Shown here piece by piece: positions 4,668 to 45,105 of a stretch of DNA of 64,000 nucleotides. The notes below the pieces were generated by a model. That model was not told the origin of the DNA. It saw only the letters and a program-made list of their open reading frames with translations, and made no database searches. Each line of letters starts with the position of its first letter. Positions within the stretch are counted from its first letter, which is position 1. Source of the stretch: Candidatus Eiseniibacteriota bacterium. GTDB lineage: Bacteria; Eisenbacteria; RBG-16-71-46; JACRLI01. A program made the position numbers and the translations under genes. The stretch is from the NCBI GenBank assembly GCA_025351485.1, contig JANXVU010000147.1:6067-70066 (forward strand), given 5' to 3'.

Positions 4668-5294
4668 TTATTTCGCGATCCGCGCCCGCACCTGCCGGGG
4701 CGTGACATGTAGATAAGTCGAGGCGGATTTCAGATTCAACATCCATTCACCCTTGGCGCCCGCCGGCGCGCTTTCGGTCTGGATCCACTCGGTATGGTTC
4801 ACCAGCGCGGCCGGTCCATCCACGCTCACCGATTCGGGCAGCGCCCGGGCCCCGAGGACGACCCCCGAGGCGGCCATCACCCGCACCGGGACCCGGCGCT
4901 CGGCGTGGCGGTCGAGCTGGACTTCGAGCGTCTCCGGGGAAGCGACGTCGGTCACCAGCACGTCGAGCCCCGCCGGGATGCTCACGTCCCGGCTCGAGGC
5001 CAGGTGGCGACGCCAGCCCGGACCGGCGGTCCCCAGGTCCAGCTCCATGCGCGCGCCGCGGAGCAGCGCCAGGTAAATGTCACGGCCGCGGCCGCGAAAG
5101 GTCACCTGCGCCTCGGCCGGAACAGGGCTCATGATGCTGAGCGTATCGGCCAGGTTCTTGACCCGCAGCGGAACCTTGTAGGTGAGGTCCTGCTCGCGGT
5201 TGGTCGCGACGTGCGCGTACACCAGCACCGCCAGAAAGACGGACACCAGCTTGATGCTCAGGTTGCTGAAGAACAGCCGCCACAGTGTTTTCAT
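4668..5294 (-). CDS. YbbR-like domain membrane-anchored protein
   Basis: N-terminal TM helix MKTLWRLFFSNLSIKLVSVFLAVLVYAHVA, then repeated V-P-V / G-P segments typical of YbbR repeats. It sits in an operon with the upstream HK and RR. Confidence 0.45.
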   Translation of the reverse strand: MKTLWRLFFSNLSIKLVSVFLAVLVYAHVATNREQDLTYKVPLRVKNLADTLSIMSPVPAEAQVTFRGRGRDIYLALLRGARMELDLGTAGPGWRRHLASSRDVSIPAGLDVLVTDVASPETLEVQLDRHAERRVPVRVMAASGVVLGARALPESVSVDGPAALVNHTEWIQTESAPAGAKGEWMLNLKSASTYLHVTPRQVRARIAK

Positions 5295-6682
5295 TCTTCC
5301 ACGCCCTCGTCCCCTTCGCCGGCCGGCGCCAGCCCGTAGCGCTCCAGCCGCGAGTACAGCGTGCGTCGGGTGAGGCCCAGCAGCCGCGCCGCCTGGCTCT
5401 TGTTGCCCTGGGAGCGCGCGATCGCTTTCAGGATCAGGTCCTTTTCAAGGTCTTCCAGCACCAGGCCGCCCGGCGGGATCTCGAAATCGTAGGAGCCGCC
5501 CGCGCCGCCGCGTTCCTTGAGCTCCGGAATGTGCTCGGCGCCGATCGGATCGGGACCCGCGGTGATCACGATGCGTTCGATCAGATTTTGCATCTCGCGG
5601 ATGTTCCCCGGGTAACTGTAGCCGAGGAGCCTGCGGCGCACCTCCGGGGCCACCCTGGAAATGTCGGAACCGAACTGCTTGAGAAAGAAATCCAGCAGCA
5701 GCGGCAGGTCCCCGGCGCGCTCGCGGAGCGGCGGCAGGTGGATTGGAAACACGTTGAGCCGGTAGAACAGGTCCTCGCGGAACTCCTTCTTCGCGATGGC
5801 CTCTTCCAGGTTCCTGTTGGTCGCGGTCACGATGCGGCAATCGGATTGGAGAGTTTCGGTTCCGCCGACCGGCACGAAGCTCTTTTCCTCCAGCACCTGG
5901 AGAATCTTCACCTGCAATGCTCCGGCGATGTCCCCGATCTCGTCCAGGAAGATGGTGCCGCCGTGGGCCAGCGAAAACCGGCCCGGCCTGTCGGCGATGG
6001 CCCCGGTGAACGCGCCCTTCTTGTGCCCGAAGAGCTCGCTTTCCAGGAGCTGCTCGGGGATGGCCCCGCAGTTCACCTTCACGAACGGCCCCCGGGAGCG
6101 GCCGCTGGCAACGTGGATGGAGCGCGCGACCACGTCCTTGCCGGTGCCGCTCTCGCCCCGCAGGAGCACCGTGGCATCGGTCTGGGCCACCCGCTCGGCC
6201 AGCGCCAGGGCCTTTTGAAACGTGGGCGCCTGCCCGATCAGGCCCTCGAATCCGGGGGCCCCGCCGAGCGTCTTGCGAAGCGATTCGTTCTCCACCGCGA
6301 GCCGTTCGCGCTCGGAGCGGTCCTCCAGCTTGGAGCCCACCTTGCGCACCCGGATGCGCAGCTCGTCCAGTTCGATCGGCTTGTTCAGGAAGTCGAACGC
6401 CCCGTCCTTCATGGCCTGCACCGCGGCGGCCACGGTGGCGAACGCCGTCATCACGATCACCTCGGTGCGCGGATACCTTTCCTTGACGATCTTGAGGAGC
6501 GCCAGCCCGTCGGGCGGCGGCATCTTCAGATCGGTGAGCAGCAGGTCGAATCGCTCCTTTTCCAGCACCTCCACCGCCTCGGAGCCGCTGTGGCGCAGAA
6601 CCAGGTCGTGGCCCTCCTCCGAGAGCGTGTCTCCCAGCAGGCGGGCCAGCCGCGGCTCGTCGTCAACCAGCAGGATTTTCAT
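5291..6682 (-). CDS. sigma-54-dependent response regulator (NtrC family: REC + AAA+ + HTH)
   Basis: MKILLVDDEPRLARLL...DLKMPPPDG (receiver), GESGTGKDVVARSIH (Walker A), GAFTG, ESELFGH, and a C-terminal Fis-type HTH QAARLLGLTRRTLYSRL. ATG at 6680-6682. Confidence 0.9.
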   Translation of the reverse strand: MKILLVDDEPRLARLLGDTLSEEGHDLVLRHSGSEAVEVLEKERFDLLLTDLKMPPPDGLALLKIVKERYPRTEVIVMTAFATVAAAVQAMKDGAFDFLNKPIELDELRIRVRKVGSKLEDRSERERLAVENESLRKTLGGAPGFEGLIGQAPTFQKALALAERVAQTDATVLLRGESGTGKDVVARSIHVASGRSRGPFVKVNCGAIPEQLLESELFGHKKGAFTGAIADRPGRFSLAHGGTIFLDEIGDIAGALQVKILQVLEEKSFVPVGGTETLQSDCRIVTATNRNLEEAIAKKEFREDLFYRLNVFPIHLPPLRERAGDLPLLLDFFLKQFGSDISRVAPEVRRRLLGYSYPGNIREMQNLIERIVITAGPDPIGAEHIPELKERGGAGGSYDFEIPPGGLVLEDLEKDLILKAIARSQGNKSQAARLLGLTRRTLYSRLERYGLAPAGEGDEGVEE

Positions 6683-8021
6683 TCGACCTCGCGGGGAATC
6701 GGACCTGGAACACGGAACCCTTGCCCGGGGCGCTCTGCACCTCGACGCGGCCACGGTGCTCGCGCACGATGCGGTCCACCACGGCGAGCCCCAGGCCGGT
6801 GCCGCGTTCCTTGTTGGAATAGAAGGGATCGAAAATCTTGCGGAGCGCTTCCCGCGGGATTCCCTGGCCGGTGTCGCCCACCTCGCAGACCCACTCGCGG
6901 CCGTCGCGCCTGAGCCCCAGCGTGAGCGTGCCTCCTTCGGCCATGGAATCCTGCGCGTTCAGGATCAGGTTCAGGAACACCTGCCGAACTCCGGCCGGGC
7001 TACCCTGCACGAACGCCGGCCCGGTGCCCTCGGGGTAGCGGGTCTCCACGCTCACGCCGTGCTTGGACAGGTTGGGTTCGCACAGGAGCCGCACCCGCTC
7101 CAGCGACTCGCGCAGGTCCAGTTCCGAGGACTGGTCCGGATCGCTGCGCGCAAAATCGAGGTAGGTGGAAAGAATCCTGTTCAGCCGCTCCACTTCTTCA
7201 GGGATATATTGCCAGATTTCATCCTCGGGCGGGGCCTTCTTCAGCCGCTCGGCGGTGGCCCGGATGATGGCCAGGGGGTTGCGGATCTCGTGGGCCATGG
7301 TCGCGGCCAGCTGGCCCATGGTGGCCAGCGTCTCGTTCCGGCGCGCCCGCTGCTCGGCCTCCAGCAATCCGCGGGTGGCCCGGGCGAAAACCCAGCCCAG
7401 CAGCAGCACCGCCAGGGTGGATACCGCCGCCACCCCGAGGAGGTTCCGCCGCAGCTGCTCCAGCCCGCCGAAAAACGAGGCGTCCGCCTCCACCGAGAGC
7501 ACCGCGCCGATGTCGGAAGAATCGTACGCCACCGGGGCGAAGGCCGTCTTGTAGTAGACCCCCTGCTGACTGTAGAGAGAGCTGGCCGAGGGCCGGCCCA
7601 TGAGGGCCGCGTCGGCGGCCGGTCGGTCGAACACCAGGGCCGGGTTGGGCCCCGCGAGCGGCGGATCGGCGTCCAGGTCCAGCAGCGGATGGCGCTCCCG
7701 GTCGAACAGGAAGATGTTGCGGATCCAGCCCGTGCCGCTCCGGGTTCGCAGGAGCTGGTGGCGCAGCGTCACGTAGGCAAAGCCGAACCGGCCGTTGTCC
7801 AGCAGGTCTTGCAGTTCGGACTGGGTGATGCGGGAGGCGGCCGTGACCGCGACGGCGGTGAGGCTGCGGCTAAGCTCGGATTCCCAGTGCTCCCGGAACG
7901 ACCGGTAGTAGAACCACCCGGCGGCGTTGAGGACGAGCAGCATGAACACCAGGAAGGACAGGGTCCAGCCCAGCTGGACGGCATGGGTGGGGATCCCCGG
8001 GCGGGGCGAACGGACGCGCAT
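6663..8021 (-). CDS. sensor histidine kinase (TM, HisKA, HATPase_c)
   Basis: TM helix LGWTLSFLVFMLLVLNAAGWFYY, H-box MAHEIRNPLAIIRATAERL, and N/G boxes LILNAQDSM...GDTGQGIP...GTGLGLAVV. Overlaps the RR start by 20 nt. The start could be ATG 8021 or an upstream TTG at 8057; neither has a clear RBS. Confidence 0.8.
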   Translation of the reverse strand: MRVRSPRPGIPTHAVQLGWTLSFLVFMLLVLNAAGWFYYRSFREHWESELSRSLTAVAVTAASRITQSELQDLLDNGRFGFAYVTLRHQLLRTRSGTGWIRNIFLFDRERHPLLDLDADPPLAGPNPALVFDRPAADAALMGRPSASSLYSQQGVYYKTAFAPVAYDSSDIGAVLSVEADASFFGGLEQLRRNLLGVAAVSTLAVLLLGWVFARATRGLLEAEQRARRNETLATMGQLAATMAHEIRNPLAIIRATAERLKKAPPEDEIWQYIPEEVERLNRILSTYLDFARSDPDQSSELDLRESLERVRLLCEPNLSKHGVSVETRYPEGTGPAFVQGSPAGVRQVFLNLILNAQDSMAEGGTLTLGLRRDGREWVCEVGDTGQGIPREALRKIFDPFYSNKERGTGLGLAVVDRIVREHRGRVEVQSAPGKGSVFQVRFPARSNENPAG

Positions 8022-19389: not shown

Positions 19390-21096
19390 ATGCCGGCAGA
19401 AACCCGGAAATCGCTCGGACAGTACCTGCTCGAGCGCAACCTGCTCTCCCGCGAGCAGCTGCAGACCGCGCTGAACGAGGCCCGCAAGCAGGGTATCTTC
19501 CTGCGCCAGTCCCTGGCCAAGATGAACCTGGTCAAGGAAGAGCACCTGCTGGACTACCTCGAGAACGAGCTGGGCATCCCGCGCATGGACCTGTCGTCCT
19601 ACGACAGCGACCCGGTGCTCCAGAAGCTGGTCCCGGAGCGGCTGGCCCGCAAGCACATGCTGCTGCCGGTCTTCAAGATCTCCAACATCCTCACGGTCGC
19701 CATGGTGGACCCGCTGGACATCATCGCGCTGGACGAGGTGAAGATGGCCTCCGGCTGCGAGGTGGAGGCGGTGGCTTCCCCCGAGTCGCAGATCCTGGAT
19801 GCCATCGACAAGTACTACCCGATGGGCCGGATGGTCGAAAGCCATGACCTTTCGGCCGACGAGCCGCGCGACGTGGACTTCATGGCCGAAACGGGCAAGC
19901 CGGTGGCGGCCGAGGAAGGCCCCATCGTCAAGCTGGTGAACGCGCTCATGACCCAGGCCATGCGCGAGAACGCGAGCGACATCCACATCGAACCCGAAGA
20001 GACCTGCATCCGGGTGCGCATCCGGGTGGACGGCATGCTCCGCGACGTGGGCACGCACCCCAAGGCGCTCCACAGCTCCATTGTCTCGCGCATCAAAGTG
20101 GTTTCGGAGATGGACATCTCCGAGCGCCGCGTGCCGCAGGACGGCCGCTTCAAGGTGAGCCTGGAGGGCAAGGAACTGGACCTGCGCGTGTCCACCTGCC
20201 CCACCATCCACGGCGAAAACGTGGTGATCCGGATCCTGCGCAAGGACGCGCTGGTACTGAGCCTGGATTCCATCGGGATGTCCGCGCGGGACCTGGTCCT
20301 GGTGCAGGGCATGATCGCCCGCCCGCACGGGATGCTGCTCGTGACCGGCCCGACCGGATCGGGCAAGACCACCACCCTGTACTCGTGCCTGAACGCGATC
20401 AACAACCCGAACCGCAACGTGGTGACGCTGGAAGACCCGGTGGAATACCGTCTCCCCTACGTGCGACAGACCCAGGTCGACCCGGAAGCGGGATTGACCT
20501 TTGCGCGCGGCCTGCGCTCGTTCCTGCGCCAGGATCCGGACGTGATCATGCTGGGCGAGATCCGCGACAGCGAAACCGCCGAAATCGCGATCCGCTCCGC
20601 GCTCACCGGCCACATGATGCTTTCGACGCTCCACACCAACGACGCGCCCAGCTCCCTGGCCCGGCTCCTGGACATGGGCATCGACCCGTTCCTGGTGTCG
20701 TCTTCGATCATCGGCGTGATCGCCCAGCGGCTGCTGCGCGGGGTGTGCGAGAAGTGCAAGGAACCCGAGGTGGTGCGCCCCGAGGTGCTCCTGCGCCTGG
20801 GCATGCGCGCGGCCGAGGACCAGTTCGTGCGCGGGGCCGGCTGCAAGGCCTGCAACGGCACCGGCCTCAAGGGCCGTCTGCCAGTGTTCGAAGTGCTGCA
20901 GGTGGACGACGAAGTGCGCGGCATGATCGCCCAGCGTGCCTCGTTCGAGGCGATCGGGCAGGCGGCCCGCCGCTCGGGCATGCGCACGCTGCGCGACGAC
21001 GCCCTGGACAAGGCGCGCCGCGGGCTGACCACCCTGGGCGAGGTCTCGCGCGTCACCGGCGAGGACCCGGAAGCGGTCCGCGAGGTGGCGGCTTGA
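19390..21096 (+). CDS. pilB: type IV pilus assembly / T2SS ATPase (PilB/GspE family)
   Basis: N-terminal GSPII domain LGQYLLERNLLSREQLQTAL; Walker A TGPTGSGKTTTLYS; Asp box; tetracysteine CEKCKE...GCKACNGTG. Confidence 0.9.
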   Translation: MPAETRKSLGQYLLERNLLSREQLQTALNEARKQGIFLRQSLAKMNLVKEEHLLDYLENELGIPRMDLSSYDSDPVLQKLVPERLARKHMLLPVFKISNILTVAMVDPLDIIALDEVKMASGCEVEAVASPESQILDAIDKYYPMGRMVESHDLSADEPRDVDFMAETGKPVAAEEGPIVKLVNALMTQAMRENASDIHIEPEETCIRVRIRVDGMLRDVGTHPKALHSSIVSRIKVVSEMDISERRVPQDGRFKVSLEGKELDLRVSTCPTIHGENVVIRILRKDALVLSLDSIGMSARDLVLVQGMIARPHGMLLVTGPTGSGKTTTLYSCLNAINNPNRNVVTLEDPVEYRLPYVRQTQVDPEAGLTFARGLRSFLRQDPDVIMLGEIRDSETAEIAIRSALTGHMMLSTLHTNDAPSSLARLLDMGIDPFLVSSSIIGVIAQRLLRGVCEKCKEPEVVRPEVLLRLGMRAAEDQFVRGAGCKACNGTGLKGRLPVFEVLQVDDEVRGMIAQRASFEAIGQAARRSGMRTLRDDALDKARRGLTTLGEVSRVTGEDPEAVREVAA

Positions 21097-21143: not shown

Positions 21144-22376
21144 ATGGCGGCCTACGAATTCAAGGCGCGCGAGCGCGCGGGCGCGGTGCGCGAGGGCGTG
21201 CTGCACGCCGAAGGCGAAGCGGAAGTCCTGAAATTGCTCGAAGAGCAGGGGCTGCTCCCCATCCGCATCGTGAAGCAGGCGGCCGCGGACAATCCCCGGC
21301 CCGCGGGATCCGTCCCCTCGATCCCCTTCATGGCCCGGAAGGTCCCGGTCAACGAACTGATCATCTTCACCCGCCAGCTCGAGACGCTGCTCGACGCCGG
21401 CATCCCGATCACGCAGAGCCTGGAGATCCTGGAGGACCAGACCCCGGGCCAGCAGCTCCGCGAAGCCACCGGCCGGGTGCGGGAATCGGTCCAGCAGGGC
21501 GACAGCATGGCCGAGGCGCTGGCCCGCGAGCCGCTGGCGTTCCCCCTGCTGTACGTGAACATGATGCGGGCCGGCGAAGAAGGCGGTGTGATGGCCGCCA
21601 TGCTGGAGCGCACCGCCACCCTGATGGAGCACGAGGCCGAGACCCGCGAGCGCGTCAAGTCGGCGCTGTTCTACCCGCAGCTCATCCTGGGCGAGCTGGT
21701 GCTGGCGTTCGCGGTGCTGGTGAAATTCGTCCTTCCCCGCTACAACGCATTCTTCAAGGGCATGGGCGCCAAACTGCCGCTCCCGACGCGGATGCTGATC
21801 GCCATGGACGTGTTCATGGAACAGCACGGCCTGGTGGTGCTGGTGGCCGCCGTGGCCCTGGTGGGGCTGTTCATGTACCTGGTCCGGCTTCCGGCCGGAC
21901 GCTGGAAGTTTCACGAGTTCCAGATCCGCGTGCCGCTGTTCGGCGAGATCGTGCTCAAGAGCATCATGTCCAGGTTCGCGCGGGTCCTCGCAGCATTGAT
22001 CGATTCGGGCATCCCGATCACGGTCGGGCTCGATATCTCCCGCCGGGTCGCCGAGAACCTGGTGGTCGAGCGCGAGATCGAGCGGATGCACGAGGGGATC
22101 ATCTCGGGCCGCGGGGTGACCGGATCGCTCAAGGGCGGCAAGGTGTTCCCGCCGCTGGTGGTCAAGATGCTGGCCGTGGGCGAGGAGACCGGCACGATGG
22201 ACAAGATGCTGCTCAAGGTGAGCGCCTATTTCGACCGCGACGTCGAGTACGCGGTGAAGAACCTGACCCAGGCCATCGAGCCGATCCTGCTGGTGATCAT
22301 GGGCGTGGCGGTGCTGTTCATCGCGCTGGCCGTATTCCTCCCCATGTGGAACCTGATGCAGGCCATGACCCACTAG
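21144..22376 (+). CDS. pilC: type IV pilus inner-membrane platform protein (PilC/GspF family)
   Basis: Two T2SSF domains (ELIIFTRQLETLLDAGIPITQSLEIL... and LKSIMSRFARVLAALIDSGIPITVGLDI...) with 3 TM segments. Confidence 0.9.
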   Translation: MAAYEFKARERAGAVREGVLHAEGEAEVLKLLEEQGLLPIRIVKQAAADNPRPAGSVPSIPFMARKVPVNELIIFTRQLETLLDAGIPITQSLEILEDQTPGQQLREATGRVRESVQQGDSMAEALAREPLAFPLLYVNMMRAGEEGGVMAAMLERTATLMEHEAETRERVKSALFYPQLILGELVLAFAVLVKFVLPRYNAFFKGMGAKLPLPTRMLIAMDVFMEQHGLVVLVAAVALVGLFMYLVRLPAGRWKFHEFQIRVPLFGEIVLKSIMSRFARVLAALIDSGIPITVGLDISRRVAENLVVEREIERMHEGIISGRGVTGSLKGGKVFPPLVVKMLAVGEETGTMDKMLLKVSAYFDRDVEYAVKNLTQAIEPILLVIMGVAVLFIALAVFLPMWNLMQAMTH

Positions 22377-22700
22377 AAGGCCCCGGCCCGGCCGGCGGCC
22401 GAATGGGATTCCCGGGGCCAATCCCGGCGCCGGCCCCCCGGTGCCGGGTTCCCGGCCCGCCGGGCCCCGATTCCCAACTTCAATCATCCCAACGTTTTTC
22501 CGCTTTCCCGTGCCATGGGTAATTGAGCCGGAATCCCTCTCAAACCGCTCAAGATGCAATCCGCCCCTCCCGATACATATCTCGTGACACCCCCGCCCCC
22601 GGGCGGGCGCCAGCAGGTCGCGTTCGTTTCGCCGTCAGGCGGCCCGGGCAGCGGCCCGGTACGCCGCCACCGCGGCAATTCCACACAGGAGGAAGTTCCC

Positions 22701-23084
22701 GTGAAACTCATCCGCAGCCAGCGTGGCTTCACGCTCATCGAGCTCGTGATCGTCATCGTGATCCTGGGCATCATCGCTTCGATCGCCCTTCCGAAGTATG
22801 AAGACATGCGCGAGAACGCCCGTTCGGCCGCCATCAAGGGCCAGCTGGGCGCCATCCGCGCGGCGGTCGCCATCCAGTACGCCAAGACCTCGTTGACCAC
22901 CAACGCGGCGGCCTTCCCCAGCCTGACCGGCGCCATCTTCGCCGACGGACAGATCCCGCTGGAGCCGGTGACCAACGTGCGCACGGTCAAGGCCACCAGC
23001 GGCGTGGACAACGCGGGCGGCTGGCAGTACCTGTCGGCCACCGGCGTCGTGAAGTGCAACCTGAACTCCTACTCGAGCTACTAA
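22701..23084 (+). CDS. pilA: type IV pilin (class III prepilin signal)
   Basis: AGGAGG RBS then GTG 22701. (M)KLIRSQRG|FTLIELVIVIVILGIIASIALPKY is the canonical prepilin cleavage/methylation motif. 127 aa with a single Cys and a C-terminus ...NLNSYSSY. Confidence 0.85.
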   Translation: MKLIRSQRGFTLIELVIVIVILGIIASIALPKYEDMRENARSAAIKGQLGAIRAAVAIQYAKTSLTTNAAAFPSLTGAIFADGQIPLEPVTNVRTVKATSGVDNAGGWQYLSATGVVKCNLNSYSSY

Positions 23085-23094
23085 GGGACCGCAG

Positions 23095-24945
23095 GTGAGG
23101 TTCACGGGAACCACCACGCAGCGTCCTGGGGGCGCGCCGGGCCAGTCCCGGCGCGCCTTCCCCGAAGCCGCGTTGGTGGCCCTGGCCGGGGGCGTCGCGT
23201 TCCTGGCGACGGCCTCGCGCGACCTGGCGGCGGGCGATTCGGGGGAGCTTCTCCTGGCCGCCCGGACGTTCGGCATCCCGCATCCTCCCGGGTACCCCCT
23301 GTGGGTGCTGCTGGCGGGGCTCTTCGGAATGATCCCGGTTGGAACGTTCGCGCTTCGCGTGGCGCTCCTCTCGGTGCTGTCCGCTTCCGTGGGCCTGGGA
23401 ATCCTCTACCTGATCATGCGTCGCTGCGGCCTGGACCGGCCCGTGTGCGCCGCCTCGACCCTGGCGCTCGCGTTTACCCCGCAGTTCTGGTCATCGGCCG
23501 GATCGGTGGAGGTGTACGCGCTGGCGTTCGCGGTGGACGCGGCTGCGGCATGGACGGCCTGGAACTACGTCGAGCTCGGCGGACCGAGGCGGCTCTTCGC
23601 GTGCATGACGCTCGCGGGACTCGCCCTTGTTTCGCACCAGAGCGCGGCGGTCTTCCTGCCGCTGCTTCTCATGGTGACCGCGCCAAGGATGGCGAGGGAC
23701 GGCATCCGGGGATGCATGCTGGCGGCCGCCGGCCTGGTCACGGGCCTCCTGCCGTTCGCGTGGCTGCCCCTGCGTTCCTCCCAGCATCCGGTGTTGGACT
23801 GGGGCCATGACGCCAACCCGGTCCGGCTCCTGGCGAACCTGAGCCGTGCCTGCTACGGGGATGTTGCCCAGCATGCGTTCAGCTGGGGACGCCTGGGCCG
23901 CGAAATGGCGTTCTTCGGATCGCAGCAGGTATCGGAGTGGGGGGTCGGCATGGTGTTCGCGGCGCTCGCAGGGTTCGTGCTGTGGGCCTTTCGCAGCCGG
24001 CGCGGAGCGACCCTGGGAATCGTGGCGCTGCTGTCACTCCCGTTTGGACTGGCCGTGATCTTGAATTTTGAACCCGATCCCACGCACGCCTTCCAGGTTT
24101 CGCAGTTCCTGATGCCGGTCTCGGCGGTGATGGCGATCGCCATCGCCCACGGTCTCGCGCCGCTGCTGCGTTCCCCTGCCAGGATCCCGGCGCTGACGCT
24201 GATGGCCGCGTGGGTGCTGGGCGGCGCGGCGGCCCACTATCCGCTGGCCGACCAGCACGACCTGCATCTGGCCCGCCGCTACGGCCAGGACCTGCTCGCC
24301 GGCCTGCCGCGCGGGGCCACGCTGTTCGTGGAAGGCGACAACGAGACCTTCACCGTGGCCTACCTCCAGAAGGCGGAGGGGCTTCGTCCGGACGTGCGGG
24401 TGATTCACCGCAAAGGATTTGTGTTCGAGGATCCCTACGGGCTGGCTTCGCTTCCGCGCCGGGAGTGGCCCGCCCGCCAGCGCGCGGTGGAAGCCTCGCT
24501 CCTCTCTGCGATCCGGGGCCCGGTCTATTCCACCTCGGACATGCCGCTGCCGACTGGTTTCGGGCTGGAACCCGTGGGCCTGGTCTCCCGGGTGGTGCGC
24601 GGCCAGGTCGTTCCCGCCCCGGCTGCGGTGCCGGCGTTGTCGGCCGACCTCGCCCGGGTGCGGCGCACCGACTACGTCACGCGCAAACTGGCCGTGAGCT
24701 ACCTGGAAGGGGACGCGCGCGAGGCGTTGCGCCGCGGCTCGCTCATGCAGGCGGTGGAGGCCTACCGAAGGCTGGCCTACGTGGCCTACGACTTTCCCGA
24801 GGCTCATTACGACCTGAGCCGTCTCTTGCTTCTCGACGGGCAGCGCGATGCCGCCCGGGCCGAGTTTCTAACCGCGCTCCACCTGGCGCCGCACGAAGTG
24901 TGGCTGCGCGAGGAAGGTCGCAAGATGGGATTCGTGCTCTCATGA
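23095..24945 (+). CDS. DUF2723-family polytopic membrane protein (GT-C-like, PMT/ArnT-type fold) with C-terminal TPR repeats
   Basis: ...DSGELLLAARTFGIPHPPGYPLWVLLAGLFGMIPVGTFALRV... is the DUF2723 signature, with more than 10 TM helices. C-terminal TPR-like ...QAVEAYRRLAYVAYDFPEAHYDLSRLLLLDGQRDAARAEFLTALHLAP. GTG start at 23095. Confidence 0.7.
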   Translation: MRFTGTTTQRPGGAPGQSRRAFPEAALVALAGGVAFLATASRDLAAGDSGELLLAARTFGIPHPPGYPLWVLLAGLFGMIPVGTFALRVALLSVLSASVGLGILYLIMRRCGLDRPVCAASTLALAFTPQFWSSAGSVEVYALAFAVDAAAAWTAWNYVELGGPRRLFACMTLAGLALVSHQSAAVFLPLLLMVTAPRMARDGIRGCMLAAAGLVTGLLPFAWLPLRSSQHPVLDWGHDANPVRLLANLSRACYGDVAQHAFSWGRLGREMAFFGSQQVSEWGVGMVFAALAGFVLWAFRSRRGATLGIVALLSLPFGLAVILNFEPDPTHAFQVSQFLMPVSAVMAIAIAHGLAPLLRSPARIPALTLMAAWVLGGAAAHYPLADQHDLHLARRYGQDLLAGLPRGATLFVEGDNETFTVAYLQKAEGLRPDVRVIHRKGFVFEDPYGLASLPRREWPARQRAVEASLLSAIRGPVYSTSDMPLPTGFGLEPVGLVSRVVRGQVVPAPAAVPALSADLARVRRTDYVTRKLAVSYLEGDAREALRRGSLMQAVEAYRRLAYVAYDFPEAHYDLSRLLLLDGQRDAARAEFLTALHLAPHEVWLREEGRKMGFVLS

Positions 24946-26702
24946 GCCTCAAGCCGCCTGCCGTGATTGAGTTCGGCAACCTGCTGGGCAGGGGCCGCGC
25001 GCTGATTGCCTCCCTGGGCCGGCCCGGCCGCTCTGCCGCTGTGCGGGGAGAGCTGGTGGGCGTGGACCTGGGAGGCAGCAGCATCAAGCTGACCCGGATG
25101 CGCCGCGGCAAGGGCAGGCCGCAGCTGCTGGACTTTGCCGAGCTCGCGCTTCCCCCGGCGGAGGCGTTCGCCAAGGAGTCGCGCACCGGGGCGCTCAAGG
25201 AGGGGCTCGCGGAGCTGGTGCGCACCCATCGCCTCAAGGGCAAGCAGGCGGTCGGCCTGGTCTACGGGCTGGACGTGGTGCTGCGCCGGACCATCATGCC
25301 CAGCATGCCCCACGCCGACCTGCATTCGGCGCTGGAGCTGGAAGCCCACAAGTACGTGCCCTTTCCCCCCGACCGGATCGCGCTGGACTACGAGGTGATC
25401 GGCCCCACGGCCGACGCCGGCCAGGTGGAAGTCCTGGTGGCGGCGTGCGACCGCGAACGACTGGCGGAGATCTACGAGATCCTTTCTTCGGCCGGGCTCA
25501 AGGTGCGCGGGATCACGGTCCCTCCGCTGGCCTTCCGAAACGTGATGCGCCACACCAGTCTCGCGGGCAGCCAGGAAGTGACCGCGTTCTTCGACGTGGG
25601 CCATCACTCGATCAACCTGTGCATCTTCAAGCGCGACGAGCTGCGCTTTTCGCGCGAGCTCTCGCTGGGCAGCCACGCGTTCACCGAAGCGCTCCGCACC
25701 ATCATCGTGCCGGGGCAGGGCACCATCAAGCTCACCGAGGAAGAGGCCGAGCGCCTCAAGCTGGAGCACGGCATCCCGATGGGCGAGGACGAGAAGAAGA
25801 TCGTGGGCGGAATCGCGCTCGCCAACGTGACCGTCATGCTCCGGCCCACGCTGGAAAGGCTGACCCGCGAGATCTGGAGCTCGTTCGACTACTGCAACGA
25901 GGAGTTCTTCGGCGAATCGGTGCAGCGGGTGTTCCTGACCGGGCGGGGTGCGCGGCTGAAGAACCTGCCGGCCTACCTGGAGTCGGTGCTGCGCGTGCCG
26001 GTATCTCTTTTCGACGTGGGGACGGAGTTCGGCATCTCCGGCGAGCGGACAGCCGGCGAGTTGGACGGGCTCGGCTTCGCCCCGGCGCTGAGCCTGGAGG
26101 ACTTTGCCGGGATCAACCTGGAGCGCGCGCTGCTGCCGGCCGAGGTCGCTCCCATCCGGGTCGTGGCCGGCTACCTCACCGTGCCGCGAATGGCGACCGC
26201 CGCGCTGCTGGCGGTGGCCGTGGACGCCTCGCTGCTGGAGCTTCATCACAATGGCGTGCAGCAGCGGCTTTCGGCGATGGAAGCCGCGCAGGCCCGCATG
26301 ACCCAGGAAGCCCCGGAATTGACCAGGATCCAGTCGCGCATGAAGGCAAGCCAGAACCGCGCCGCCATCCGCGCCCAGCTTTCGATGGGATCGCCGGACT
26401 GGTCGCTGGTCTTGAAAGATCTGTCGCTGCGCATCGGCCCCCGGGTCCGGTTGCGTGAGATACGCCCCGAGATGACGCATCCCGACCAGGCCTCCCAGCC
26501 CGGCGCGCTTCCCGAGCAGCGGCTGCTCCTGGATGGGAACGTGGACAAGTGGGTGGACCGGCCGGAACTGGAAGTGGCGTCCACCATGCGCTCCCTGATG
26601 GCTTCGGCCTTCTTCAGCGACGTGCGCCTGGTGGAGAGCTCGCCGAGCGATTCGAACGGGACGCGCGTGGTGATCTCTTGCGCATTGCGGGGTGGCCAGT
26701 GA
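24942..26702 (+). CDS. pilMN: fused PilM (actin-like ATPase) / PilN type IV pilus alignment protein
   Basis: ATG 24942 overlaps the upstream stop (ATGA). The N-terminal 350 aa LVGVDLGGSSIKLTRM...GYDLGHHSINLCIF... is PilM/FtsA-like. The C-terminal 230 aa has a TM helix (RMATAALLAVAVDASLL), a coiled coil and a PilN-like periplasmic part. The listed ORF 24210..26702 has an artefactual 244-aa N-terminus. Confidence 0.8.
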   Translation: MSLKPPAVIEFGNLLGRGRALIASLGRPGRSAAVRGELVGVDLGGSSIKLTRMRRGKGRPQLLDFAELALPPAEAFAKESRTGALKEGLAELVRTHRLKGKQAVGLVYGLDVVLRRTIMPSMPHADLHSALELEAHKYVPFPPDRIALDYEVIGPTADAGQVEVLVAACDRERLAEIYEILSSAGLKVRGITVPPLAFRNVMRHTSLAGSQEVTAFFDVGHHSINLCIFKRDELRFSRELSLGSHAFTEALRTIIVPGQGTIKLTEEEAERLKLEHGIPMGEDEKKIVGGIALANVTVMLRPTLERLTREIWSSFDYCNEEFFGESVQRVFLTGRGARLKNLPAYLESVLRVPVSLFDVGTEFGISGERTAGELDGLGFAPALSLEDFAGINLERALLPAEVAPIRVVAGYLTVPRMATAALLAVAVDASLLELHHNGVQQRLSAMEAAQARMTQEAPELTRIQSRMKASQNRAAIRAQLSMGSPDWSLVLKDLSLRIGPRVRLREIRPEMTHPDQASQPGALPEQRLLLDGNVDKWVDRPELEVASTMRSLMASAFFSDVRLVESSPSDSNGTRVVISCALRGGQ

Positions 26703-27265
26703 AAGAACCGATCAACCAGGCATCCCGGCGGGCCGTGACCGCGATCGTGATCGCGGCGGTGGCCGTGGCGGCCTTCCACGCGCTGGCCCTCGCGCCGCGC
26801 CGCGTCCAGACCCGCAACCTGGAAGTGCAGGCGGCCTCGCTGGCGTACCAGCAGGCGGCGCAGCTCCAGGACACCCGGGAATTGACCGACTGGCTCAAGG
26901 AGCACGTGGGCGCCGCGCCCACCCTGCCGCCGGAGCCGGTCAGCTCCGCCTCGGCCGTGCCGACGCTGCTCCAGAAGATGGCGGACATCGGAAGCAAGCA
27001 CGGCATCCAGGTGGTCAGCGTCAGGCCCGATGCCCCGGAAGCCCCGGTGACCGTGAACACCGGCGACGGCGAGACCCGCACCTATGCGCGCATCCCGGTG
27101 CACCTGACCGCCCGCGCCGATTACCGGGCGCTGGGCGCGTTCCTGGAAGAGCTCCGGGCCCAGGGGGATCTGGCCGTGGTGCGCAGCGTCCACCTCAGCC
27201 TGGACGTCCCGCACCACGCGTGGAACGTGGACCTCCTGGTGGACGCGTTCGGGAGGATCTCCTGA
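26699..27265 (+). CDS. pilO: PilO-like type IV pilus assembly protein
   Basis: GTG 26699 overlaps the pilMN stop (GTGA). TM helix AVTAIVIAAVAVAAFHALAL, a coiled coil, and a C-terminal IPVHLTARADYRALGAFLEELRAQGDLAVVRSVHLS ferredoxin-like PilO/GspM domain. Confidence 0.65.
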   Translation: MKEPINQASRRAVTAIVIAAVAVAAFHALALAPRRVQTRNLEVQAASLAYQQAAQLQDTRELTDWLKEHVGAAPTLPPEPVSSASAVPTLLQKMADIGSKHGIQVVSVRPDAPEAPVTVNTGDGETRTYARIPVHLTARADYRALGAFLEELRAQGDLAVVRSVHLSLDVPHHAWNVDLLVDAFGRIS

Positions 27266-27762
27266 TGCAGATGTCCGCCAAGCTGACTCGCAACAGCAAA
27301 GTCATGATCGGGCTGCTCGCAGTGCTGCTGCTGTGGTCGCTCCACGAGCAGTCGCAGATGAAGGCGCGCAAGGCCGGACTGGCAGCCGCGCGCGCGGCAG
27401 CCCCGCCCGCCGCGCCGGTCGGGCCATCCGGGATCGCGCCCGTGACGGAGGCCGCGCTGGCTTCGCTCCGGGTGGCGCCGTGGGGCCAGGATCCCTATTT
27501 CAAGAGCCAGGACGCTCCGGTTTCAGCCGGCCCGCTCCAGGCCACCCACCTTCAACGGCCGGGCCGGCCGACCGGCGCCGGGCTCAAGCTGAATGGAATC
27601 CTCTTCGCCGGCGCCAATTCCAGCGCTCAGATCTGCGACCGGGTCGCGGGCGTGGGTGAATCCGTGTACGGCTGGAAGATCGTAGATATCCGCCCGACGA
27701 CGGTCACACTCGTCCATCGCGGCGTCACCATCAAACTCCAACTCCACGAGGACGAGCCATGA
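27265..27762 (+). CDS. pilP: PilP-like type IV pilus assembly protein
   Basis: GGGAGGA RBS; ATG overlaps the pilO stop (TGATG). N-terminal TM/signal, Pro/Ala linker, and a C-terminal beta-sandwich LKLNGILFAGANSSAQICDRVAGVGESVYGWKIVDIRPTTVTLVHRGVTIKLQL. Confidence 0.6.
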   Translation: MQMSAKLTRNSKVMIGLLAVLLLWSLHEQSQMKARKAGLAAARAAAPPAAPVGPSGIAPVTEAALASLRVAPWGQDPYFKSQDAPVSAGPLQATHLQRPGRPTGAGLKLNGILFAGANSSAQICDRVAGVGESVYGWKIVDIRPTTVTLVHRGVTIKLQLHEDEP

Positions 27763-29069
27763 ACGTGCGCATCACCACCGGCCTTTGCGCCGCGGCGCTG
27801 GTGCTCACCCTGAGCCTGGCCACCGCCGACGAGCCGCGCTTTTCCATGGACTACCGGAACGCGCGCCTGGAGGACGTCCTGCGCGCCCTGGCCGCCCAGG
27901 CCAACATCGGCCTGGTGACGCCGGGAACGTTGACCGGAAGCGTGACCTTGAAGCTCAAGGACGTGACGTTCGACGAGGCCCTGCGCCACGTCTCGGACGC
28001 CACCGGAGTGCACTGCGCCCGGAGCGGCAGCGTGCTCACCGTGAACCCCCAGGGCGTCAGCACCCGCACCTACAACATTCGCTACGTGAGCGCGTCCGCC
28101 GTGAGGGACGCCATTTCCAAGGTGCTCAGCGCCCAGGGCACCGCCGACGTGTTCAACGGGTCGGTCAAGGACGACATCGGCAAGACCGGCGAACTGGTGG
28201 CCTCGAACACCCTGGTGGTACGCGACAACGACGCCAAGCTGGACGAGGTCGCGGCGCTGGTGGCCTCGCTCGACAAACGCCCCCGCCAAATCGAGATCGA
28301 CGCCAAGCTGGTGGAGGTCTCGCTCAACAACGACGACAAGATGGGCATCGAATGGCAGCTGGCCGCGCACATTTCGGGCGCCACCATGCCGACCACGTTC
28401 CCCTTCGACAAGAACGCCACCGGCGGCGACTACAGCCCGACCGGCAACACCACCGGCGGGACCACCGGGGGCGCGCCCTTCCCCAAGGGGCAGGTGTTCC
28501 CCTACGCCTCGCCGGGCGACTTTACGTTCGGAAAGCTGTCGGCCTCCGAGTTCAGCGTGGCGCTGGCGTTCCTGTCCTCGCACAACAAGACCAACCTGGT
28601 GTCCAACCCCAGGATCTCCACGCTGGAAAACAAGCCGGCCGAGATCCTGGTGGGCACGGTGGTGCCGATCGCCATCTACCAGTACTCGCAGCTGGGCGGC
28701 AATCTTCAACTCTCGGGCTACGAGGAAAAGCGGATCGGCGTGAAGCTCGCGGTGAATCCCCGGGTCACCGAGGACGGGCGCATCCTGATGTCGGTGCACC
28801 CGGAGATCAGCGAGATCGTGGAGTACCGCGGCCAGTTCAACGAGCGCCCAGTCACCAGCAACCGCGAGGCCAGCACCGAGGTCATGATCAAGGACGGCGA
28901 GACCCTGGTGATCGGCGGCCTGGTGCGGGAGACGTCCGTGGAGACCGTCAAGAAGGTCCCGTTCCTGGGGGACATCCCGTTCCTGGGCGCCCTGTTCACC
29001 AGCAAGCACACCGCCAAGGAAAAAGTGGAGTTGATGGTGTTCGTGACGCCGCACCTGCTGCCGGAATAG
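27759..29069 (+). CDS. pilQ: type IV pilus secretin (PilQ/GspD family, short form)
   Basis: Signal peptide, N0/N1 domains, and a secretin C-domain ...NKPAEILVGTVVPI...VMIKDGETLVIGGLVRETSVETVKKVPFLGDIPFLGALF... The start overlaps the pilP stop. Confidence 0.85.
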   Translation: MNVRITTGLCAAALVLTLSLATADEPRFSMDYRNARLEDVLRALAAQANIGLVTPGTLTGSVTLKLKDVTFDEALRHVSDATGVHCARSGSVLTVNPQGVSTRTYNIRYVSASAVRDAISKVLSAQGTADVFNGSVKDDIGKTGELVASNTLVVRDNDAKLDEVAALVASLDKRPRQIEIDAKLVEVSLNNDDKMGIEWQLAAHISGATMPTTFPFDKNATGGDYSPTGNTTGGTTGGAPFPKGQVFPYASPGDFTFGKLSASEFSVALAFLSSHNKTNLVSNPRISTLENKPAEILVGTVVPIAIYQYSQLGGNLQLSGYEEKRIGVKLAVNPRVTEDGRILMSVHPEISEIVEYRGQFNERPVTSNREASTEVMIKDGETLVIGGLVRETSVETVKKVPFLGDIPFLGALFTSKHTAKEKVELMVFVTPHLLPE

Positions 29070-29171: not shown

Positions 29172-29579
29172 ATGGAGGTCAAAGCCAAGGCCCGGATCCT
29201 GGTCGTGGATGACGAGGAAGACCTGGGACGGATTCTCAAGTTCGCGCTCATGGCCGCGGGGCACGAAGTGCTCCTGGCAATGGACGGCGCGGAAGGACTG
29301 AAGCTGGCCCGCGAAGGCGGCCCGGACCTCATCCTGCTGGACCTGATGCTGCCCAAGATCGACGGCTACAAGGTGTGTCGGATGCTGAAATTCGACGAGC
29401 GCTACAAGAGCATCCCCATCGTGATCCTGAGCGCGCGCACCCAGGAGGCGGACAAGGAAATGGCCCGCGACACCGGCGCCGACCTGTTCATCACCAAGCC
29501 GTACAACCTGGAAGAAATTCTCCGGACGATCGACCGGCTGCTTTTGACCTCGCCGAGCTATCTCCAGAAGGCCAGCTAG
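29172..29579 (+). CDS. single-domain response regulator (CheY-like receiver)
   Basis: ARILVVDDEEDLGRIL...DLILLDLMLPKIDGY...IPIVILSAR...DLFITKPY - complete receiver consensus (DD, D, T/S, K) with no output domain. Confidence 0.9.
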   Translation: MEVKAKARILVVDDEEDLGRILKFALMAAGHEVLLAMDGAEGLKLAREGGPDLILLDLMLPKIDGYKVCRMLKFDERYKSIPIVILSARTQEADKEMARDTGADLFITKPYNLEEILRTIDRLLLTSPSYLQKAS

Positions 29580-35753: not shown

Positions 35754-36764
35754 ATGAATTCCCGCTGCGTGCTGCTCCTGACCTACGGCGAACCACCCAC
35801 ACCCGAATTTTTCTCCCAGCTGCAATATTCGTGGCGGATCCTGCTGGGATTGACGCGCTCCGTGGCCCCGATTCCCATGGCGGTGCTCCCGATCATCGCG
35901 CTCAAGCGCGGCTTCGCCCGCAACAAGATGTGGTCCGATGAAAAGTACGGATCGCCGCTGGAGAAGATCCACGACGCGCAGGTGCGCGCGGTGAAGCAGG
36001 CGCTGGAAAAGGCCGACCCGCGCACCCGGTGGGATGTGCGCGCGGCCTACGAGTTCCGGGACCCGCTGCTCCAGGACGTGGTGAATGGCGCGCCCGCGGG
36101 CATTCCGGTGGACGTGGTCCCGATGTACGCGGCCTGCTCGGCATTCACGCACGATCTTTCGCGCCAGCTCCTGGCATCCGATTCGAGCCTGGCCGCTTCC
36201 GGCCGGGCCGTGCACGTGCTGCCGCCGCTGCCCGAGGAGCGCCTTGCCGACATGATGATCGCCCACGTCAAATCGGAGCTCAAGAAGCGCGGCGTCACCA
36301 CCGGCAAAGACTGGGCGCTGCTCCTCTCCGCCCACGGCACGCTTCTCCAACCCCCGCGCCCCTACGAGACCGGCAGGCTGGCCACCGAGCGGTTGTGCGA
36401 GCGCATCCGGCGGGGCCTCCAGGGTGAGTTCGGAAAGGTCTGCAACGGCTGGCTTAACCATATTTACGGCGGAGAGTGGACCAAGCCCCCGGCCGACGAG
36501 GCGCTCAAGTGCCTGGCCGGGGAAGGCTATAAGAAAGTGGTGTATTTCCCGTACGGGTTCCTGGCGGACAACGCGGAGAGCGAGCTGGAAGGACGGCAGG
36601 TGCTGCGCACCCAGCCCCAAATGGAATCCGTCCATCTGGCTTGCCTGAACGAGAGCCCGGCGCTGGCGGAACTGATCGCGTGGCAAGTGGCGGGACGGAT
36701 ACCGCTGCGGGCCGCGAGCCGCGCCGGAGCGAAGGCGCGGGCCCCCGAAGCCGTGGGCGTGTAG
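35754..36764 (+). CDS. ferrochelatase-family protein (divergent)
   Basis: CVLLLTYGEPPTPEF (compare GxLLxNLGGPxT), LLLSAHGTLL (compare LLxSxHGxP), and C-terminal VVYFPYGFLADNAESELE (compare PGFxADCLETLEE). Confidence 0.5.
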   Translation: MNSRCVLLLTYGEPPTPEFFSQLQYSWRILLGLTRSVAPIPMAVLPIIALKRGFARNKMWSDEKYGSPLEKIHDAQVRAVKQALEKADPRTRWDVRAAYEFRDPLLQDVVNGAPAGIPVDVVPMYAACSAFTHDLSRQLLASDSSLAASGRAVHVLPPLPEERLADMMIAHVKSELKKRGVTTGKDWALLLSAHGTLLQPPRPYETGRLATERLCERIRRGLQGEFGKVCNGWLNHIYGGEWTKPPADEALKCLAGEGYKKVVYFPYGFLADNAESELEGRQVLRTQPQMESVHLACLNESPALAELIAWQVAGRIPLRAASRAGAKARAPEAVGV

Positions 36765-39596: not shown

Positions 39597-40991
39597 CTAG
39601 ACCGTTCGCGAGTAAGTCGGCTTCCCCGCATCCGGCTGCTTCAGGTAGCGGTCGAACTCCATCGCGACCAGCCGCACGAACAGCCGCCCCATTTCGGTGA
39701 CCTCCACCACTCCGCCCTCGACGTTGGCAATGCCGTCCGCCACCGGGCCGCGCTTGAGCGACTCGAGCTCGGTCGCGAAGTGCCTCCGGAAGTCGATCCC
39801 GAACTTCTGCTCCACCGCCGGCACGTTCACCCTGAAGTTGCACATCAGCTGCATGATCACGTCGCGGCGCAGCGCGTCGTCGCCCACCAGCGCGTAGCCC
39901 TTTTCGGTGGCCGGGCGGCCGCCATCCACCGCCGCGTAGTAGATCGGCAGCTTCTTGGTGTTCTGCGCGAAGGCCTCGCGCACGTCGCCGATCGCCGAAA
40001 CTCCCATGCCGATCTGGTCGCTTGCCGGCATCACGGTGTATCCCATGAAGTTCCGATACAGGCTTCCGGAGGCCGAGGCGCGCGCCAACTCGTCGGTCGC
40101 GAGCGCGAAGTGGTCCATGCCCACCTGCACGTAGCCGCCCGACAGGAATCCGTCGATGGCGGTGGCGAAGAGCTCCACCTTCACCTCGCGCGCCGGCAGG
40201 TCCTCGGGCTGGATGCCCTTCTGGTTGTGCTTGATCCAGGGCACGTGCGCGTAGGAATAGCAGGCGACGCGGTCGGGACGCAGGCTCACCACCTGCTCCA
40301 CGGTCTGCGCGAACGACTCGGGGTTCTGGTAGGGCAGGCCGTAGATGAGGTCCAGGTTGATGGAGCCGAAGCCCTCCGCGCGGCAGGCGTCGAAGCACTC
40401 CTTGGTCATGTCGAAGGGCTGGATGCGGTTCACCGCCTCCTGCACCTCGGGCGTGAAGTCCTGCACCCCCATCGAGATCCGGTTCCATCCGAGCTTTCGG
40501 AGCAGCGCGATCTGGTCGCGCGTGGTGACCCGCGGGTCCACTTCGATCGCGACCTCGGCGTCGGGCGTGAACTGGAACTCCTCGCGCACCACGTGGTGCA
40601 GATGCTCGATCTGTTCGCAGGTCAGGTAGGTCGGCGTGCCGCCGCCCCAGTGGTACTGGTTCACCTGGCGGCGGTCCTTGAGGCGGGAGGCGATCAATCG
40701 CACCTCGCGCTCCAGGGACTCCAGGTAGCGGTCCGAGATCCCGGTCTTGCGGGTGATGATCACGTTGCAGCCGCAGAACCAGCAGCGCTCTTCGCAGAAC
40801 GGCAGGTGCAGGTACAGCGAGACCGGCGAGTCCTTGAGCTCGGAGGCGCGCTCCAGGTGCTCCAGGTACTGGTCGGCCCCGAAGCTCTCGGAAAACTCGA
40901 CCGCGGTGGGATAGCTGGTGTAGCGCGGTCCCGGCCGGTCGAACCGGGCCAGCCGTTCCGCGGTGACCTGGATTCTCTCGTTTCGGATCAT
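39597..40991 (-). CDS. hemN: oxygen-independent coproporphyrinogen-III oxidase (radical SAM)
   Basis: MIRNERIQVTAERLARFDRPGPRYTSYPTAVEF...SLYLHLPFCEERCWFCGCN (CxxxCxxC radical-SAM motif)...GGGTPTYL. ATG 40989-40991. Confidence 0.9.
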   Translation of the reverse strand: MIRNERIQVTAERLARFDRPGPRYTSYPTAVEFSESFGADQYLEHLERASELKDSPVSLYLHLPFCEERCWFCGCNVIITRKTGISDRYLESLEREVRLIASRLKDRRQVNQYHWGGGTPTYLTCEQIEHLHHVVREEFQFTPDAEVAIEVDPRVTTRDQIALLRKLGWNRISMGVQDFTPEVQEAVNRIQPFDMTKECFDACRAEGFGSINLDLIYGLPYQNPESFAQTVEQVVSLRPDRVACYSYAHVPWIKHNQKGIQPEDLPAREVKVELFATAIDGFLSGGYVQVGMDHFALATDELARASASGSLYRNFMGYTVMPASDQIGMGVSAIGDVREAFAQNTKKLPIYYAAVDGGRPATEKGYALVGDDALRRDVIMQLMCNFRVNVPAVEQKFGIDFRRHFATELESLKRGPVADGIANVEGGVVEVTEMGRLFVRLVAMEFDRYLKQPDAGKPTYSRTV

Positions 40992-42028: not shown

Positions 42029-42030
42029 GT

Positions 42031-43353: not shown

Positions 43354-43363
43354 GTCGTTCCCT

Positions 43364-44332: not shown

Positions 44333-44339
44333 TTCGGGT

Positions 44340-45092: not shown

Positions 45093-45105
45093 CGGTCGCG
45101 CTTGC

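Follow-up and report, generated by a model that had tools for sequence, protein, structure and literature searches.

A pilin gene paired with the gene of a dedicated glycosyltransferase is a known kind of system. Such enzymes have been described in a few cultured proteobacteria, where they affect phage susceptibility, immune recognition and pilus assembly; TfpO is encoded beside pilA and modifies its associated pilin, and TfpO and a second enzyme, TfpW, have been called unrelated glycosyltransferases (J Bacteriol 2025, PMC11841053). TfpW of P. aeruginosa group IV (accession AAM52060.1) is encoded immediately downstream of pilA and is needed for D-arabinofuranosylation of the pilin. It is a GT-C enzyme of 646 residues that uses a lipid-phosphate sugar donor and that has its N-terminus in the cytoplasm, a predicted 11 transmembrane helices and a periplasmic tetratricopeptide repeat (TPR) domain (bioRxiv 10.1101/2020.04.19.049825). 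Here we analyze a 64-kb stretch of DNA from Candidatus Eiseniibacteriota (contig JANXVU010000147.1; the whole stretch is referred to below as the window) in which a major prepilin gene (22701-23084, + strand) is followed, after 10 intergenic bases, by a gene with a GTG start (23095-24945, + strand) that encodes a 616-residue GT-C glycosyltransferase of the TMEM260 family (PF11028, DUF2723). We put at roughly 60% the probability that this enzyme is an active, periplasm-facing, polyprenyl-phosphate-sugar-dependent O-glycosyltransferase of the pilin. The enzyme family, the lineages involved and the type of pilin, which is cysteine-free with a near-invariant YSSY C-terminus, are new to such systems.

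The pair follows the same pilin-gene logic as the proteobacterial systems with a different enzyme family, of which the only characterized member is the product of the human disease gene TMEM260. This protein is a proven O-mannosyltransferase of proteins that is inactive as a D52A mutant, and of its bacterial relatives the literature says no more than that there are "distant homologs in bacteria" (PMC10214176). According to a cryo-electron microscopy preprint, TMEM260 residues D52, H67, Y267 and R355 touch the mannose, R264 binds the phosphate and the general base is D441, which belongs to the luminal Rossmann-like domain; the D441A, D52A, H67A, R264A and Y267A substitutions kill activity and R355A leaves ~20%. 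In the ternary complex from the same work an extended acceptor peptide stretches from the TPR fingers as far as the active site, and its glycosite is a single residue away from its C-terminal end (bioRxiv 10.64898/2026.03.17.711096). Full-text literature searches, which had incomplete coverage, returned nothing linking DUF2723 or TMEM260 to pilins; the only mention of DUF2723 in the searched literature was in the report of the discovery of TMEM260 (PMC10214176), and no study of the bacterial relatives was found. Pilin glycosylation in Eisenbacteria, Omnitrophota and the candidate phyla radiation (CPR) has so far been guessed from sequence predictors only (bioRxiv 10.1101/2024.11.25.624915), and a study of Saccharibacteria pili predicted pilin O-glycosylation from sequence and named no enzyme.

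Judged by sequence, the window enzyme is truly homologous to human TMEM260. It matches PF11028, which now describes TMEM260-like protein O-mannosyltransferases, with an E-value of 2.6e-21 and 76.6 bits (cutoff 24.2), and contains the signature of this family as GDSGE...GIPHPPGYP; precomputed matches to PF11028 and to PF28495 (TMEM260_2) are recorded for an identical protein. A phmmer search of the PDB sequences retrieved human TMEM260 (9RQL/9RQM/9RQN) with an E-value of 2.9e-23 over enzyme residues 31-459, and a profile built from 20 homologues matched the TMEM260 structure at 3.8e-81. Other models gave less: the Pfam PMT_2 match is borderline at threshold, the TPR match is below threshold, and none of the NCBIfam models matched the enzyme. 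The motif FGIPHPPGYPLWVLL (residues 59-73), which the first-pass annotation of this DNA had taken for a PMT/ArnT-like signature, belongs instead to the TMEM260/DUF2723 family, with only the GT-C fold in common. The remainder of what that annotation had described here, a pilin gene directly before a gene for a polytopic DUF2723/TPR membrane protein, was confirmed in its coordinates, its spacing and the motif.

The catalytic residues of TMEM260 are retained. In a pairwise alignment D52, H67, R264, Y267 and D441 correspond to D48, H63, R251, Y254 and D415 of the enzyme, and E55 and E144 are also kept, as E51 and E139. Across an alignment of 82 homologues D48, H63 and D415 are invariant, save for one gap at D415 in a sequence that is not linked to a pilin. 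The residues D, H, E, R, Y and D are found at six catalytic positions in all 22 pilin-linked members of the family, although these range in identity from 24 to 100%.

The AlphaFold2 model of the enzyme is confident, with a predicted local distance difference test score (pLDDT) of 91.6; its helices extend to about residue 385, a mix of strands and helices occupies 409-502, and helices resume at 527-610. It consists of a membrane core (approximately residues 1-390), an alpha/beta domain (approximately 405-505) and TPR-like helices (527-610), the last of these bearing out the C-terminal TPR repeats proposed earlier. In fold comparisons the enzyme scored highest against ALG12 (25.5) and Pmt4 (25.3), the latter being a PMT of the kind with which the first-pass annotation had suggested comparing it, followed by an archaeal AglB-type oligosaccharyltransferase (20.7), ArnT (20.5), AftB (20.3) and PglB (18.6); the C-terminal part matched TPR proteins with scores of 10-11. 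Foldseek results are consistent with these GT-C and TPR matches. The model thus indicates a GT-C enzyme whose three-part layout is that of TMEM260. From homology and the basic N-terminus we infer that loop 1, which carries D48, and the C-terminal domains are periplasmic, and so probably on the side of the membrane at which the globular part of the membrane-anchored pilin sits before assembly.

The enzyme shares with TMEM260 the order of its parts, namely GT-C core, alpha/beta domain and TPR region. It differs in being a bacterial protein of the inner membrane rather than of the endoplasmic reticulum, in a donor that would be a bacterial polyprenyl phosphate sugar instead of dolichol-P-mannose, in having a pilin rather than an IPT domain as its presumed acceptor, and in a shorter TPR region.

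Functionally the closest system to the window pair is TfpW. Both enzymes are encoded directly downstream of the major pilin (with a 10-nt gap in the window) and they have in common an 11-transmembrane-helix design with a periplasmic TPR domain. However, the enzyme contains neither of the published TfpW motifs. The DDX motif of periplasmic loop 1 is absent, as this loop reads AAGDSGELL and has no DD or D[DE], and neither the YX6PFX7P motif found near the TPR domain of TfpW nor the looser pattern YX6PX5-8P has a match in the enzyme. On these two motifs, by which TfpW homologues are defined, we rejected membership of the TfpW family and treat pilA-tfpW as an analogy; by sequence the enzyme belongs to the TMEM260 family. 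The parallel with pilA-tfpO/tfpW that had been drawn for this locus consequently holds for tfpW, in gene order and protein design, but TfpO is a poorer comparison. TfpO and PglL are enzymes of a different, O-antigen-ligase type that transfer preassembled undecaprenyl-diphosphate-linked oligosaccharides rather than single monophosphate-carried sugars. Beyond the PMT_2 core, the enzyme also has no significant similarity to the PMT/POMT proteins (GT39, including actinobacterial Pmt). PMTs carry a MIR domain, which the window enzyme lacks, and act on many secreted proteins; they are not known to be encoded with pilins.

One indication of what the enzyme modifies is the recurrence of its gene next to pilin genes. 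We surveyed GTDB representatives (one genome per species) with the two most conserved motifs of the family, obtaining 541 relatives, and examined the best 80 of these as loci. In 17 of the 80 an open reading frame (ORF) with a prepilin motif lies directly upstream of the family gene on the same strand and within ~185 nt. Seven of the 17 are Eisenbacteria-type (five so labelled, one Dormiibacterota, and uncultured-bacterium bins), nine are Patescibacteria/CPR-type (Gottesmanbacteria, Paceibacterota, unclassified Patescibacteria and two bins that are labelled Gammaproteobacteria and carry CPR-type pilins) and one is from Omnitrophota. Genes for pilB and pilC are found upstream wherever the contig reaches far enough, and in another two Gottesmanbacteria loci the sequence is truncated shortly upstream of the enzyme gene, with minor pilins downstream. 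In the other ~60 loci, which come from Gemmatimonadota, Firestonebacteria, Chloroflexota, Myxococcota, Planctomycetota and other groups, no pilB, pilC, pilM or pilQ homologue was found within 10 kb, and about five stray prepilin-motif ORFs occur in ~1.2 Mb. From the density of prepilin motifs in these remaining loci ~0.4 chance adjacencies would be expected, as against the 17 observed, and chance adjacency was rejected on this basis. Conservation of the DUF2723 gene beside pilins in related genomes, a point on which the first-pass annotation had hung its proposal, therefore extends from Eisenbacteria to two other phyla. A neighbor-joining tree places the pilin-linked members in three separate groups; because the deep branches of this tree are long and unsupported we make no claim that the link arose independently in the three lineages.

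Within Eisenbacteria the arrangement is uniform, with the order pilB-pilC-pilin-enzyme present in every cluster examined at enzyme identities of 36-100%. The identical enzyme is found on 4 public contigs and has the same neighbors on all three that were examined. Two loci with 59-60% enzyme identity (L001 and L003) have the same order of pilB-pilC-pilin-enzyme-...-pilM-...-secretin-response regulator, two tandem pilins preceding the enzyme in L001. A more distant cluster (L004, ~38-39% enzyme identity) also has this order, with the addition of three minor pilins and an NHL-repeat gene after the enzyme.

The pilin gene has a GTG start preceded by what reads as a ribosome-binding site (AGGAGG, 8 nt upstream) and encodes a protein of 127 residues, or 118 in the mature form; gene callers give the identical 127-residue product on the public contigs. 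No other ORF in the window carries a prepilin motif. The product matches Pfam N_methyl with an E-value of 7.4e-10 and TIGR02532 above threshold, and it has a class III signal peptide in which the basic leader VKLIRSQRG, with its terminal glycine, is followed by the FTLIELV of a hydrophobic helix with glutamate at +5. The protein ends in ...VVKCNLNSYSSY, confirming the ...NLNSYSSY tail recorded in the first-pass annotation. That annotation also noted a single cysteine and hence no disulfide loop. Both statements are correct for this pilin, in which C119 is the only cysteine, although the cysteine itself is not conserved. The C-terminal disulfide loop that is a hallmark of type IVa pilins is absent from the window pilin and from its family, since 93 of the 120 cluster representatives over which conservation was counted contain no cysteine at all. 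By sequence, such loop-less pilins are a departure from the classical IVa type that nevertheless remains within the pilin superfamily. The most conserved feature besides the N-terminal helix is the extreme C-terminus, where the consensus is N-L-x-x-Y-S-S-Y. Of the 120 representatives, 116 close with the four residues YSSY, two with YSTY and one each with YSAY and YSRY, so that S125 is present in all 120. Other conserved hydroxyl residues are T99, which is invariant, T114, which is conserved in at least 90%, and T11, inside the N-terminal helix.

A complementary survey from the side of the pilin, in which a metagenome scan with the Eisenbacteria pilin alignment returned 80 loci, gave a similar picture. 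The YSSY pilins that follow pilC and for which downstream sequence is available (five loci) all precede the enzyme gene, as do four YSSY pilins with truncated upstream sequence. Of ~60 pilins that belong to other lineages and end differently, none has a PF11028 gene downstream; among them are full-length relatives of 34-43% identity that are located in pilB-pilC-pilin-pilM/Q clusters.

The enzyme gene is embedded in a pilus operon on the + strand. This opens with a pilB-type assembly ATPase of 568 residues (19390-21096; Pfam T2SSE, E 6e-137, and MshEN), which likewise heads the conserved cluster in L001, L003 and L004, and a pilC-type platform protein of 410 residues (21144-22376; T2SSF, E 1.8e-50, two repeats). 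A 324-nt spacer that is very rich in G+C and in proline codons (22377-22700) then leads up to the pilin and contains its ribosome-binding site; three relatives have a pilC-pilin spacer of comparable length. Directly downstream of the enzyme is a 586-residue fusion of pilM with a pilN-like C-terminal part (24942-26702; PilM_2, E 1.5e-31, residues 39-367), the start of which overlaps the stop codon of the enzyme (ATGA). An equivalent 585-residue gene is found directly 3' of the enzyme in L001 and L003, and the ~220-residue C-terminal extension in the position of pilN is kept in all Eisenbacteria relatives inspected. The operon continues with a pilO-like protein of ~188 residues (26699-27265; PilO, E 1.2e-5, and T2SSM_b) whose GTG start overlaps the pilMN stop and whose counterpart in L001 has 190 residues, a small protein of ~165 residues with an N-terminal membrane segment (27265-27762) that can be called pilP by position only and has counterparts of 164-170 residues in L001, L003 and L004, a pilQ-type secretin of 436 residues (27759-29069; Secretin, E 5.7e-48, Secretin_N and STN) and a receiver-only response regulator (29172-29579; Response_reg, E 2.4e-25), for which a stand-alone receiver gene is present at the matching end of the cluster in L001, L003 and L004. 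The gaps between genes, counted from the pilin on, measure 10, -4, -4, -1 and -4 nt, and no terminator-like site was found in 22300-25100; searches of the pilC/pilin/enzyme interval for sigma-70 and sigma-54 promoter consensus sequences and for a terminator also gave no match. Because the gaps are tiny or overlapping and uninterrupted by any terminator-like site, it is almost certain, as read from the sequence, that the enzyme gene shares a transcript with the pilus machinery genes and that its translation is coupled to theirs.

These features suggest how the enzyme might work. The membrane core would bind a polyprenyl-phosphate-linked monosaccharide at the membrane's periplasmic face, with D48, H63, R251 and Y254 positioning the donor as in human TMEM260. 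Ahead of pilus assembly, a stretch of the membrane-anchored pilin would be held in extended form by the alpha/beta and TPR-like domains in the periplasm, and a single sugar would be passed to a serine or threonine hydroxyl of the pilin with D415 acting as general base. The modified pilin would then be polymerized by the operon-encoded PilB/C/M/N/O/P/Q machine. Whilst the choice of the pilin as acceptor is one that we infer, the site within it is a matter of speculation. Candidates are S125 and S126 in the C-terminal Y-S-S-Y tail, with T99 and T114 as other conserved hydroxyls. By analogy, a C-terminal tail would be compatible with the peptide geometry seen in TMEM260, and a precedent for a C-terminal pilin glycosite is provided by TfpO, which modifies the C-terminal serine of the strain 1244 pilin.

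Taken as a hypothesis, the pairing of the pilin with a glycosylating enzyme is supported. A number of points nevertheless weigh against it. Glycosylation of the pilin is argued here from genes and models, and the specificity of the enzyme for the pilin is deduced from gene position. Around three quarters of the family loci have no pilus genes within 10 kb, and the family as a whole must therefore have other substrates. The mannose-contacting R355 of TMEM260 is replaced by Q337 in the window enzyme; all five essential TMEM260 residues are present and only the non-essential R355 differs, but as a consequence of this replacement the identification of the transferred sugar as mannose is speculative. 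The TPR part of the enzyme is short, amounting to some four or five helices. The AlphaFold2 model of the pilin, made with 40 homologues, has a pLDDT of 59.8 and is unreliable in the C-terminal half, where values are below 50, and therefore says nothing on exposure of the tail or on pilin subtype. Five YSSY paralogues are located off-cluster and are not adjacent to an enzyme gene, from which it follows that some genomes hold extra copies that would need to be served by the enzyme in trans. Finally, the correlation between the pilin tail and the enzyme is no more than suggestive, being confounded by ancestry because all YSSY pilins come from one lineage.

Two of these points have further detail. 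Among the pilin-linked enzymes, the position equivalent to R355 is arginine in each of the 11 of CPR type (nine whose genes directly follow a pilin gene and two from the truncated loci) and glutamine, proline or valine in the other 11 (ten Eisenbacteria-type and the Omnitrophota locus), and mostly tyrosine or valine in relatives that are not pilus-linked. This variation hints, on sequence grounds, at different donor sugars among the members of the family. The off-cluster pilin paralogues (for example L097:2015-2395) end in ...NLNAYSSY, with no pilB or pilC upstream and no PF11028 gene downstream; the L097 pilin is flanked by unrelated ORFs and no pilus gene is called nearby.

The origin of the donor is a further point that counts against the proposed function. 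A Pfam scan that covered 38 ORFs of the window detected no GT2, GtrA-like, sugar-nucleotide, donor-synthesis or flippase gene. No D-arabinofuranose pathway (DprE1/DprE2, phosphoribosyltransferase) is present among the scanned genes, the sole FAD_binding_4 protein being MurB. The Omnitrophota locus has GT2, GT4 and GT2 genes directly after the enzyme (L084:12058-14949), the first of which overlaps the enzyme stop codon, and from its gene content it looks like a complete glycosylation module within a pilus operon. Several family members without a pilus link have a small GT2 gene as well, at a distance of up to ~6 kb or, in L048, directly downstream. A small GT2 and an adjacent GT-C enzyme usually form a pair of polyprenyl-phosphate-sugar synthase and transferase, and the size and position of these GT2 neighbors suggest that they may make the lipid-phosphate-sugar donor. 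Ten CPR loci have a different neighbor, a membrane protein of ~750 residues that is encoded convergently to the enzyme (for example L028:11895-14150, minus strand) and followed by a prepilin peptidase and then by minor pilins. The protein is 28-44% identical among loci and has a YfhO-like Pfam match that is below threshold (E 4e-6), and by sequence it may be a second GT-C-like enzyme of the same pilus locus.

Three other explanations of the locus jointly account for about a third of the probability. The one that survives best, though we consider it unlikely, is that the enzyme is active on another acceptor, either a periplasmic or outer-membrane part of the pilus system (minor pilins, NHL-repeat protein or secretin) or envelope proteins in general, and that the major pilin is a mere neighbor. 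TMEM260 and the PMTs modify several folded-domain or Ser/Thr-rich proteins (PMC10214176), most family members are not pilus-linked, and in the Eisenbacteria clade of ~38% identity the enzyme gene lies between the major pilin and the three minor pilins with their NHL-repeat gene. However, the clusters of the window, L001 and L003 have no minor pilins or NHL gene and yet retain the enzyme directly after the major pilin, and the pilin is the constant immediate upstream partner in three lineages. A markedly less probable explanation is that the protein is an assembly factor whose periplasmic TPR region serves pilin or secretin as a chaperone or pilotin-like adaptor (compare the TPR proteins PilF, PilW and Tgl), or that it stabilizes the pilin in the membrane, with sugar transfer secondary or lost. 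In favor of this, the C-terminus is indeed TPR-like, the cluster shows no pilotin gene of its own, and translation of the enzyme gene is coupled to that of pilMN. Against it, none of the 22 pilin-linked members departs from the donor-binding and catalytic residues, which would not be expected if catalysis were dispensable, and known pilotins are small lipoproteins rather than 11-transmembrane-helix GT-C enzymes. Equally improbable is a non-protein acceptor (lipid A or a cell-wall or capsular glycan, as for ArnT, Emb/Aft and YfhO-type proteins), with the pilus locus reflecting co-regulation only, given that the sole characterized family member is protein-specific, that the general base (D441, here D415) and the acceptor-binding TPR module are kept (bioRxiv 10.64898/2026.03.17.711096), and that a position immediately behind pilin genes, recurring in three lineages, would be hard to explain.

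The window as a whole has a G+C content of 67%, and the public sequences closest to it are from metagenome-assembled genomes bearing the label Candidatus Eisenbacteria. Outside the pilus operon it contains several other features. An exact sigma-54 promoter consensus sequence, TGGCACACCGGTTGC, is present at 3862-3876 (+ strand), ~1.4 kb from the gene of a sigma-54-dependent response regulator with receiver, AAA+ and Fis-type helix-turn-helix domains (5291-6754, - strand); no such site precedes the pilin gene. A 711-residue protein encoded at 55282-57417 (+ strand) combines Ig-like (HYDIN/ASH-type) domains with NHL repeats. The nearest NHL protein of the window is 30 kb away from the pilus genes and the window has no minor pilins, whereas operons of the L004 type contain their NHL gene after the minor pilins. 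A lone gene for an EutN/CcmL-type microcompartment vertex protein (49490-49759, - strand; 89 residues, E 4.7e-23) is flanked by genes for a ThrE-family exporter and a deoxynucleoside kinase, and no other microcompartment shell genes were seen among the ORFs scanned. Tetrapyrrole genes identified by Pfam at 35754-36764 and 39597-46008 encode ferrochelatase, a HemN-like radical SAM protein, ALAD (HemB), HemD, a class III aminotransferase that is probably HemL, and porphobilinogen deaminase (HemC); together with a TP_methylase gene at 1639-2448, these are ordinary housekeeping content.

The proposal that the window enzyme glycosylates its neighboring pilin overturns nothing in current understanding, but the link to TMEM260 and the spread into CPR bacteria and Omnitrophota are noteworthy. 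We tentatively suggest, with somewhat less conviction than we attach to the window enzyme itself, that pilin-adjacent bacterial TMEM260 enzymes constitute a third class of pilin O-glycosyltransferase beside TfpO/PglL and TfpW, distributed across the uncultivated lineages Eisenbacteria, Patescibacteria/CPR and Omnitrophota. If correct, this would supply the first function for bacterial homologues of TMEM260 and a substrate for a widespread family, and pilus glycosylation would be predicted in Eisenbacteria, Omnitrophota and CPR bacteria. The pair of a 118-residue pilin and a 616-residue enzyme would be small and tractable for work on the TMEM260 mechanism. In Eisenbacteria the enzyme would read a Y-S-S-Y C-terminal tag on the pilin, and in CPR episymbionts the pili used for attachment to the host would be glycosylated by an enzyme encoded in their own operon.

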